DNA of 12,164 nucleotides. It comes from a virus. Its lineage: Duplodnaviria > Heunggongvirae > Uroviricota > Caudoviricetes. The notes beneath the pieces are model-generated. The model had not been told where the DNA came from, made no database searches, and saw nothing but the letters and a program-made list of their open reading frames with translations. The stretch is taken from the IMG/VR virus record IMGVR_UViG_2698536471_000010. One strand, written 5' to 3'. Below, piece by piece: positions 1,542-2,000 of this stretch. Position 1 is the stretch's first letter. Every line of letters begins with the position of its first letter. A program made the translations under genes and the position numbers.

Positions 1542-1890
1542 TCACGATTTCAGCGCAATGACCAGTTTTGCCAGCCCATACAGCATCGGAGACACAGCAA
1601 TACCAACAGCCACCCACTTAATAGCAAAAGCCAGCGCTCTGCTGATGTCATCAGTCACTGTCACCCCAGCAGCCCCGACGAAGACAACATCACCCAGGCG
1701 AGGGACAGAAAAAGAGCAACCAGCATTAGTGAAAATGAAATACCGACAATCACACACAGGACCTTTGCCGGCGTTATGAGTTTGTCTGACATAGCTACCC
1801 CTTAATTGCCACAATTAACTGGGATACTACCCATAAAAAAGGGATGCTCCAGACCAGCAAAAATTTCCAGTTTGGTAATTGACTAATCAT
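1542..1890 (-). pseudogene. Cluster of three short hydrophobic ORFs in three different frames between endolysin and Rz; possibly a disrupted membrane-protein gene or a set of small membrane peptides
   Basis: A 31-aa ORF (ATG 1890, GGGAG SD; MISQLPNWKFLLVWSIPFLWVVSQLIVAIKG), a 43-aa ORF (ATG 1792, AAGGGG SD; MSDKLITPAKVLCVIVGISFSLMLVALFLSLAW...) and the hydrophobic C-terminal part of ORF 1542..1814 (...DDISRALAFAIKWVAVGIAVSPMLYGLAKLVIALKS, TTG start only) lie head to tail. Confidence 0.25.
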
Positions 1891-1955
1891 GAGTCGCAAC
1901 TCCCTAATCAGTTTGCTAAAATCAATCAAGGCAGCCTCCCATAGCTTACTGCCAT

Positions 1956-2000
1956 AAAAACAAAACCCCGCTTGCTGCCAACAAACGGGGTTTTTACTTT
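1956..2000. terminator. Bidirectional intrinsic terminator downstream of the endolysin gene
   Basis: AAAACCCCG...CGGGGTTTT stem flanked by an A-run on one side and a T-run on the other, about 90 bp after the R stop. Confidence 0.5.

Follow-up and report, generated by a model that had tools for sequence, protein, structure and literature searches.

A mosaic row of small membrane-protein genes behind a terminator in the gap between endolysin and Rz of a lambdoid Escherichia coli prophage

What occupies the interval between the lysozyme (endolysin) gene R and the spanin gene Rz in the late region of a lambdoid Escherichia coli prophage? The question is raised by the IMG/VR virus record IMGVR_UViG_2698536471_000010, a DNA stretch of 12,164 nucleotides (nt) here called the window, which is such a late region and has all the relevant genes on the minus strand. 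The gap under study comprises 642 nt (1443-2084, minus strand), from the R stop codon (2085-2087) to the ATG of Rz (1442), a preliminary description of the same DNA having put the separation at some 550 bp. That description placed in the gap a bidirectional terminator followed by three hydrophobic open reading frames (ORFs), and considered a membrane-protein gene with frameshifts, a set of small membrane peptides or a sequencing error. We are highly confident that the gap holds separate, real families of small-protein genes which have been arranged by recombination. With slightly better than even confidence, we read it as a cargo hotspot of the late operon, in which a terminator is followed by a mosaic row of four genes encoding tail-anchored inner-membrane microproteins that may modulate lysis. 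The genes A (44 amino acids, aa) and B (43 aa) are intact; of a 60-aa gene, C' retains the 3' two-thirds, and D is a naturally short paralogue within the C/D family. The features of the gap are the following.

1952-1994, minus strand: intrinsic terminator, 15-pair hairpin from 1994 to 1962 and U-tract from 1961 to 1952
1795-1929, minus strand: ORF A, 44 aa from the TTG start at 1929, sequence MIDFSKLIRELRLMISQLPNWKFLLVWSIPFLWVVSQLIVAIKG; phrog_6632 at 1.3e-12 (long form)
1661-1792, minus strand: ORF B, 43 aa with a single transmembrane (TM) segment, sequence MSDKLITPAKVLCVIVGISFSLMLVALFLSLAWVMLSSSGLLG; phrog_4906 at 4.5e-21; RefSeq WP_001280935.1
1542-1664, minus strand: ORF C', about 40 aa if started from GTG 1664, sequence (M)TVTDDISRALAFAIKWVAVGIAVSPMLYGLAKLVIALKS; phrog_3246/1115/4493
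1444-1530, minus strand: ORF D, 28 aa; RefSeq WP_032140280.1; phrog_4493 at 3.8e-6

All 642 nt of the gap recur at 100% identity in no fewer than 17 independent, complete E. coli genomes, which represent different serotypes and include O55:H7 CB9615 and O103:H2 12009, and this excludes a sequencing error; in 587 of the 5426 complete genomes of E. coli, the match extends over at least 80% of the gap. On the identical sequence of O55:H7 CB9615, RefSeq lists hypothetical proteins for B, C' and D (WP_001280935.1, WP_042004856.1 and WP_032140280.1, respectively), and all four ORFs match PHROG families, each of them of 'unknown function', with E-values ranging from 4e-6 to 2e-27. The three ORFs noticed earlier do run head to tail in three different frames (1890-1795, 1792-1661 and a TM segment ending at 1542), and a fourth hydrophobic one, D (1530-1444), which lies outside the interval then considered, had been overlooked. 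The best 19-aa window reaches a mean Kyte-Doolittle hydropathy of 1.9-2.9 in every ORF, and the net charge of the N-terminal flank amounts to +4 in full-length C and D, +2 in A and +1 in B; the hydrophobic segment of at least about 19 residues with positive charge on its N-terminal side, by which tail-anchored membrane microproteins are recognised, is therefore present. Following the positive-inside rule, the predicted architecture is a short cytoplasmic N-terminus followed by a C-terminal TM helix. Among the possibilities raised at the outset, the set of small membrane peptides is the one that is supported.

The genes of the row follow one another closely: 2 nt separate the A stop codon from the B start, the B stop codon overlaps the GTG of C', 11 nt lie between the C' stop and D, and the D stop is placed 1 nt ahead of the Rz ATG. 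In the A, B and C/D families synonymous changes are in excess in the proposed frames when compared with the other frames, an effect that is weaker for the pooled B alleles; each family thus shows purifying selection in its own frame. We consider it likely that A and B are translated, and for C' and D we regard translation as evenly balanced.

ORF A combines a conserved, charged N-terminal segment with a C-terminal TM helix. Its TTG start is preceded by the Shine-Dalgarno (SD) sequence GGGAGG (-10.2 kcal/mol), which is the best in the region and falls in the top 1% of window positions, and a second in-frame start with an SD of its own, ATG 1890, is found 13 codons further on and yields a 31-aa form. 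The 31-aa ORF reported previously thus exists, but as an internal part of the 44-aa gene. The two good SD sequences that had been pointed out are confirmed, as those of ATG 1890 and of the B start at ATG 1792 are both at -8.4 kcal/mol and both in the top 3% of window positions. The 13 additional N-terminal residues (MIDFSKLIRELRL) are better conserved across genera than any other part of the family, and homologues of 44-45 aa occur in Salmonella, Enterobacter, Citrobacter, Klebsiella and Providencia. The ratio of nonsynonymous to synonymous substitution rates (dN/dS) amounts to 0.09-0.56 in the ORF A frame, 0.59-0.84 in frame +1 and about 2.9-3.0 in frame +2; in the pair formed by the window and Salmonella phage SPN3UB, the in-frame value of 0.56 is not separated from the 0.59 of frame +1.

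The 5' half of ORF A deserves separate consideration. Its codons 1-23 (1861-1929, minus strand) are near-invariant at the nucleotide level among the E. coli, Salmonella, Enterobacter and Citrobacter copies, synonymous differences being present in 0-5 of 15-19 conserved codons, as against 50-100% in the half that encodes the TM helix. This 5' half contains the internal SD, the invariant ATG 1890 and a small invariant hairpin. For the leader of A together with the 5' part of its coding region, the consensus RNA structure is weak (-6.4 kcal/mol) and includes one tidy hairpin, which is invariant, so that covariation is uninformative in either direction. The constraint may reflect a dual start producing the 44-aa and 31-aa forms, an RNA element or a recombination linker.

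ORF B was confirmed at 1792-1661 with the 43 aa assigned to it before, and its SD is supplied by the last codons of A (AAGGGG). It has 103 relatives, most of the full-length ones with 43-44 aa, at identities down to 62%, and a first scan of viral contigs for ORF B returned only 100%-identical copies, the diversity coming from other queries. Pairwise dN/dS values are 0.31-0.39 in frame and 0.6-1.8 in the other frames. An orthologue of the 933W/Sakai type (MMGWLMISDKLITLVKSLCVLVGISFLVMLVAIFFSTAWRVLTLSGLVG) has been described in E. coli O157:H7 Sakai as the 'novel small gene' XECs191, which gave signal in ribosome profiling (RIBOseq) and in RNA-seq (Hucker et al. 2017, PMC5597208). In LB, its translatome value was 12.6 reads per kilobase per million (RPKM), its RCV (translatome RPKM divided by transcriptome RPKM) 0.43 and the covered fraction of the ORF 0.55, and its authors predicted an inner-membrane protein and gave no function (PMC5597208). 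XECs191 differs from the window copy in that the identity is about 65% and that a longer upstream start was used in PMC5597208; in 933W-type phages this type of B is located after the ant gene and directly before Rz. A full-text search with the peptides gave no match in main texts, the sole match being to the supplements of PMC5597208.

The third element has a different history. C' is a copy, truncated at its 5' end, of a conserved 60-aa gene: it lacks the first 21 codons and retains residues 22/23-60. Its GTG 1664 overlaps the B stop codon in the sequence GTGA; the start chosen by RefSeq, CTG 1697, has no SD. More than 80 viral contigs carry an intact 60-aa C, which has homologues in E. coli, E. 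marmotae and Salmonella; the Salmonella gene is likewise situated between lysozyme and Rz. Two pattern scans of genome contigs for C gave matches, none of which was confirmed by tblastn. Among 15 distinct nucleotide alleles of full-length C, 14 of the 18 variable sites are at third codon positions, and the changes are 14 synonymous and 4 nonsynonymous, the expected synonymous share being 25%. The core protein of C' is identical to that of full-length C, from whose alleles it differs by 3-10 nucleotides, almost all of them synonymous. The AlphaFold model of C consists of a short helix, a loop and a long helix (22-59) with a predicted confidence (pLDDT) of about 90, an architecture that offers too little for a fold search to be informative.

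D is a short paralogue of C, as evidenced by the common motifs KYKR[IF][LF]LRL... and ...RA.AFAI[KR].VA[VI], and is truncated relative to the D genes of 50-57 aa that phages GER2 and phiSTEC1575-Stx2k carry. The ribosome-binding site of Rz is contained in the final codons of the window D (TGG TGG TGA). The pair of full-length D genes shows 21.5 synonymous and 5.5 nonsynonymous changes (dN/dS 0.04), and for the window copy dN/dS is 0.21-0.25, with the amino acids of the TM core kept through synonymous change. Short C/D forms with their own ATG exist, such as the 38-aa P0216 (MNAELLRAAAFAIKW...), which occurs in 122 blocks of the contig index, and loss of the N-terminus is therefore not necessarily inactivating. 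A profile search with C/D against 1.84 billion representatives retrieved 25 clusters, namely 24 of tiny proteins and one marginal match (E about 1e-3, 4413 aa), and revealed no larger family.

How these genes came to stand in a row becomes apparent from a comparison of 168 related loci, among which the following orders were found.

R, terminator, A, B, C', D, Rz: this window; at least 72 loci
R, terminator, C (60 aa), B, Rz: about 70 loci
R, terminator, C, D, Rz: 4 loci
R, terminator, C, B, C', D, Rz: 2 loci
R, terminator, Ant, B, Rz: 933W / Stx2 phage II
R, Ant-like gene (231 aa), A, B, C', D, Rz: loci L007-L010, the Ant-like gene being at 711-1406 of L007
C, B, DNA methyltransferase (311 aa), Rz: loci L106 and L118, the methyltransferase being at 1837-2772 of L106
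R, terminator, D (50 aa), Rz: phage GER2
endolysin, terminator, A (45 aa), Rz: Salmonella phage SPN3UB

When the window is mapped by BLAST against these types, the segment 2117..1953, comprising the end of R and the terminator, is common to all of them, the A segment is common to the window and SPN3UB, B (1792..1661) is common to the window, the C-B-Rz type and the 933W type, and 1660..1412 is collinear with the C-D-Rz type at 96.8% identity, from C codon 22 on. The junction at 1660/1661 reads GGGG-TGA-CAGTGACTGATGAC, that is, the B stop codon and then C sequence from '..CCAGTAACTGATGAC' on. The homology to the C-D-Rz type starts exactly at 1660, and C' is accordingly to be read as a recombination product fused onto the B stop codon and not as the outcome of an indel. 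The two places at which indels had been suspected are thereby accounted for: the one at 1660-1700 corresponds to this junction, which took the first 21 codons of C, and the one at 1790-1800 is the true gene boundary between A and B. A longer intact homologue elsewhere, which would have pointed to a simple pseudogene, exists only for the third element (60-aa C compared with C'), and no indel is involved. The GGGGTGA at the end of B may be an overlap of B stop and Rz start in the PhiR5_2 type; the Rz start deposited for that type is located further downstream. A 'RWW-stop' end is common to A of SPN3UB and D of the window, and its sharing by otherwise different ORFs is explained by this end being the Rz ribosome-binding site.

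At least four unrelated types of cassette have relatives of A, B and C/D in the interval that separates the endolysin gene from the spanin or lipoprotein genes.

Type 1: P21-type holin with GH24 lysozyme, this window
Type 2: holin_2_3 with lysozyme, Salmonella
Type 3: holin_8/holin_3_7 with GH19 endolysin, Enterobacter
Type 4: holin_8/holin_3_7 with GH108 or M15 endolysin, E. coli

In cassettes with a GH108/M15 endolysin (L181 2806-2961, L183 2779-2961 and L167 1349-1531), small TM genes (short C, B-like and full-length D) are followed by a lipoprotein of 51-60 aa. These lipoproteins have the lipobox F[LF]LVGC and replace Rz/Rz1, and no recognisable i-spanin partner is called nearby. L181 has, in addition, a fifth tail-anchored ORF of 65 aa, the middle of which is shared with the N-terminus of the C variant P0209.

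The upstream flank of the row is the terminator. The terminator scan identified a 15-pair stem (1994..1962) followed by GTTTTTATGG, and the GC-rich hairpin and U-tract of an intrinsic terminator are both present (15-pair stem and GUUUUUAUGG), the hairpin being located thirty-seven codons' worth of sequence beyond the R stop codon. Folded as RNA, the sense strand gives -24.2 kcal/mol (z = -5.05) and the opposite strand -15.3 kcal/mol (z = -3.0). An A-tract upstream of the hairpin means that the plus strand has a T-run as well, behind a weaker hairpin, and the sense hairpin is much the stronger because two G-U pairs turn into C-A mismatches on the other strand. The terminator can thus be called bidirectional, as it had been, with respect to its form, with T-runs on both sides, but not with respect to its strength. 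In cassettes of the 933W type, of Salmonella SPN3UB, of Enterobacter and others, a terminator likewise follows the endolysin at this position, and together with a conserved leader (CACCTTGA..GGCAAGGGAGAAC) it stands ahead of A, C or D interchangeably. The row looks like the result of cassette exchange between two conserved flanks, the terminator with its leader and the Rz ribosome-binding site. The promoter scan found no promoter-like site on the sense strand within 1300-2300, and on the opposite strand one weak promoter-like site at 1786-1815, the count of such sites being not above that of shuffled sequence. No promoter was found in the scan upstream of the SEN34 A homologue, and the Citrobacter homologue has two weak promoter-like matches, which lie upstream of or overlap the upstream terminator hairpin and provide no consistent candidate.

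Modified by Q, RNA polymerase reads through terminators in the late operons of lambdoid phages. Under the cargo-hotspot reading, the terminator would in the lysogen halt stray transcription past R, and after induction Q-modified polymerase would pass it, the row being transcribed along with S, R and Rz. Ribosomes would enter at the strong sites of A and B and be relayed by the short stop/start distances, which would couple translation of Rz to that of the row. The products would enter the inner membrane and act as accessory, non-essential modulators of holin triggering, endolysin release or spanin activity. The concern that Rz expression could suffer from the interposed sequence is probably unfounded, considering the upstream Q-type antiterminator and the tight stop/start relay into Rz. 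The lysis-modulating function itself is put forward tentatively; it is favoured by the recurrence of these families, in at least four cassette types, in the interval from the endolysin to the spanin or lipoprotein genes. A bolder version, unlikely in our view, is that A, B and C/D constitute an unrecognised class of lysis-cassette component, microproteins which through coupling would be made in fixed ratio with the spanin and which would gate spanin activation, pinholin triggering or release of the signal-anchor-release (SAR) endolysin, with A as a holin-like dual start under an RNA element. Such RNA control of the dual start would explain the near-invariant 5' half of A across genera.

A number of observations weigh against the lysis-modulating cargo row. 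None of the four peptides has a match in Pfam, NCBIfam or PADLOC, and neither homology nor experiment supplies a functional annotation. C' has no ATG and only a weak SD, D has no SD, and C' is disrupted in phiSTEC1589-Stx1c. The pooled ORF B alleles (n=17) exhibit 19 synonymous and 35 nonsynonymous changes, indicating only moderate selection, and about 7% of the B copies are frameshifted; more generally, the dN/dS values were calculated from 28-60 codons of sequences that recombine. The signal in RIBOseq is low, comes from uninduced cultures and belongs to the orthologue of ORF B rather than to the window copy. Late-operon read-through and translational coupling, which we consider somewhat more probable than not, are steps that we infer. 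The terminator-leader-A module is also found among tail and baseplate genes in SEN34 and Citrobacter, so that the association with lysis is not strict and may come from a common hotspot of insertion.

This last observation is equally what would be expected from moron-type cargo unrelated to lysis, serving superinfection exclusion, membrane or stress modulation or anti-defence, at a site that merely tolerates insertions. Such an origin seems somewhat unlikely to us. It agrees with the fact that the same site carries Ant in 933W, the 231-aa Ant-like gene and the DNA methyltransferase, all of which speak also against a lysis-specific row, and with the RIBOseq signal of the B orthologue in uninduced Sakai cultures. 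However, a moron is defined by its own promoter upstream and a terminator downstream of the insert, and this arrangement was not found: between terminator and A there is no sense promoter-like site in the window or in SEN34, the two weak Citrobacter matches are at or before the upstream terminator hairpin, and the terminator precedes the genes, whereas in classical morons it follows them. The zero PADLOC matches and the spanin-adjacent position kept across four cassette types further argue against it. We regard it as quite unlikely that the row is largely functionless recombination debris, in which C' and D, or all of it, would relay ribosomes to Rz and the 3' ends would carry the Rz ribosome-binding site, even though A and B may be real genes. 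The N-terminal truncation of C' and D relative to the 60-aa and 50-57-aa forms, the junction exactly at the B stop codon, the missing SD of D, the disruption of C' in one phage and the 'RWW-stop' end that different ORFs have in common as Rz ribosome-binding site are what debris would leave behind. Debris would not be expected to preserve the C' core protein in a form identical to full-length C despite synonymous nucleotide differences, nor to keep the D core amino acids through synonymous change, and short forms with their own ATG are common (P0216).

A single gene broken by frameshifts (a pseudogene), a sequencing error and a programmed -1 frameshift fusing B to C' are all very improbable. 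The idea draws on the three head-to-tail frames and on the C' frame being open back to 1814 (a 90-aa ORF, 1542-1814, phrog_3246), as a result of which a -1 shift inside B would yield a fusion with two TM segments. Yet the identical sequence is found in many genomes, and A, B and C, which belong to unrelated families, occur independently as separate intact ORFs and in other orders, and the protein searches returned no collinear A+B+C protein. Across B, the C' frame has a dN/dS of 1.35-1.82, compared with 0.31-0.39 for the B frame, and on reading through the sequence, the B frame proved to contain no slippery heptamer of the form X XXY YYZ. The homologues are all single-TM proteins of 38-60 aa, the longer calls that were seen being upstream read-through extensions. 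The 90-aa ORF bridging B and C' was accordingly rejected as an over-extended call, its frame evolving as non-coding across B. The least probable explanation is that of type I toxin-antitoxin-like hydrophobic toxins under antisense RNA. The peptides are small and hydrophobic, the weak promoter-like site at 1786-1815 is on the opposite strand, and a genuine hok/sok locus is present elsewhere in the window. Against this, the genes are packed as in an operon, with no spacing above 11 nt, and are not preceded by the long, structured leaders that type I toxins usually have, promoter-like sites are not more numerous than in shuffled sequence, and the peptides have no Pfam toxin match. Searched with Rfam at the gathering score and at E <= 1, the gap gave no family, and nothing beyond one chance-level match. 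Nor did any of the four ORFs show holin or antiholin membership in Pfam at E <= 1, a search in which the true holin (3216-3431) does match.

The modular organisation of the ORFs and their recurrent place in lysis cassettes have been uncharacterised until now; as sequence, the ORFs are not new, since databases already list them as hypothetical proteins and one orthologue is in the literature. Gram-negative lysis is usually described in three steps, carried out by holin, endolysin and spanin. About one tenth of complete E. coli genomes carry this exact arrangement, and in Salmonella and Enterobacter, cassettes whose holins and endolysins are unrelated have relatives at this junction; their recurrence between endolysin and spanin makes these genes cheap and testable candidates for extra lysis regulators. 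Shiga-toxin phages, in which the timing of lysis sets toxin release, are included. As to annotation, the region should be given as four short genes, with starts at TTG 1929 for A and GTG 1664 (not CTG 1697) for C', and without a frameshifted-gene flag. Even if functionless, the locus documents the shuffling of micro-genes between terminator/leader and Rz ribosome-binding site in lambdoid late operons.

The row is set in the following surroundings, listed in the direction of transcription.

11745-12069, minus strand: complete hok/mok-sok type I toxin-antitoxin locus
between hok/sok and the Q-type antiterminator gene, minus strand: DUF968 and RusA
8946-9512, minus strand: Q-type antiterminator gene, upstream of the gap on the same strand
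between the Q-type antiterminator gene and the sialate esterase gene, minus strand: DNA methylase
4138-6102, minus strand: SASA sialate esterase
between esterase and holin: DUF826
3216-3431, minus strand: P21-type holin, Pfam PF04971 at 8.5e-33
2655-3215, minus strand: YdfR-like ORF of 186 aa, between holin and lysozyme
2085-2618, minus strand: lysozyme R, 177 aa with a hydrophobic, SAR-like N-terminus, Pfam Phage_lysozyme at 2.8e-24, a RefSeq lysozyme
948-1442, minus strand: Rz i-spanin, 164 aa from ATG 1442, Pfam Phage_lysis at 7.4e-51
1037-1222, minus strand: Rz1 o-spanin embedded in Rz, taken from the ORF list

The hok/sok assignment is based on a 70-aa ORF (11745-11957) matching Pfam HOK_GEF at 3e-23 and on Rfam sok RF01794 at 118 bits. 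The 186-aa YdfR-like ORF covers only positions 117-296 of the 296 of phrog_1085, its C-terminal two-thirds, and its counterpart in CB9615 is an incomplete YdfR-family pseudogene in RefSeq. Immediately after Rz, a 74-aa ORF (727-951, minus strand) matches only positions 100-172 of the 291 of phrog_2571 and is probably a gene fragment. In K-12, rrrQ and rzpQ of the Qin prophage overlap, which leaves that strain without named counterparts of the gap ORFs. The site of the anti-sRNA genes (AsxR/AgvB/Pas; sRNA, small RNA) of enterohaemorrhagic E. coli (EHEC) was considered for the gap and ruled out, as the literature puts it between esterase and holin and the gap lies past the lysozyme. A sub-threshold match to the EHEC sRNA Esr41 is observed at 4060-4136 on the plus strand (30.9 bits, with a gathering score of 102; E = 9e-4). 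It is placed where the sialate esterase gene starts, on the strand opposite to that gene, and adjoins the esterase-holin interval, which is the literature's site of prophage Pas/anti-sRNA genes.

As regards known systems, the closest include the PHROG families 6632 (A), 4906 (B) and 3246/1115/4493 (C/D) and the RefSeq proteins, which match the window ORFs directly and differ from them in that some have over-extended or unlikely starts, such as the 90-aa ORF of phrog_3246 and the SD-less CTG 1697. Lambdoid morons (e.g. bor, lom and stx) are extra genes between conserved late genes (Juhala et al. 2000, as cited in PMC4104026). The gap genes resemble them in being non-essential extras between late genes, associated with a terminator, mosaic and exchanged among phages, at a site that also carries ant and a methyltransferase; they differ in that they have no detectable promoter of their own, that the terminator is upstream and that they are translationally chained into Rz. 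With the Hok protein of this same window (11745-11957) they share size and hydrophobicity, but they are embedded in an operon and have neither antisense RNA and fold-back leader nor a Pfam or Rfam match. Small membrane regulators of lysis are well established, examples being the antiholins S107 and S21-71, LydB of P1, RI of T4 and the releasin gp25 of Mu. Like the gap ORFs, these are small TM proteins encoded inside lysis cassettes (for lysis by Mu, see PMC9239132); the gap ORFs differ from them in having no similarity to Pfam holin/antiholin families and in being separate genes downstream of the endolysin. Within the row, ORF A is the one that recalls the dual-start motifs of holins and antiholins, with its two in-frame starts 13 codons apart, each provided with an SD.

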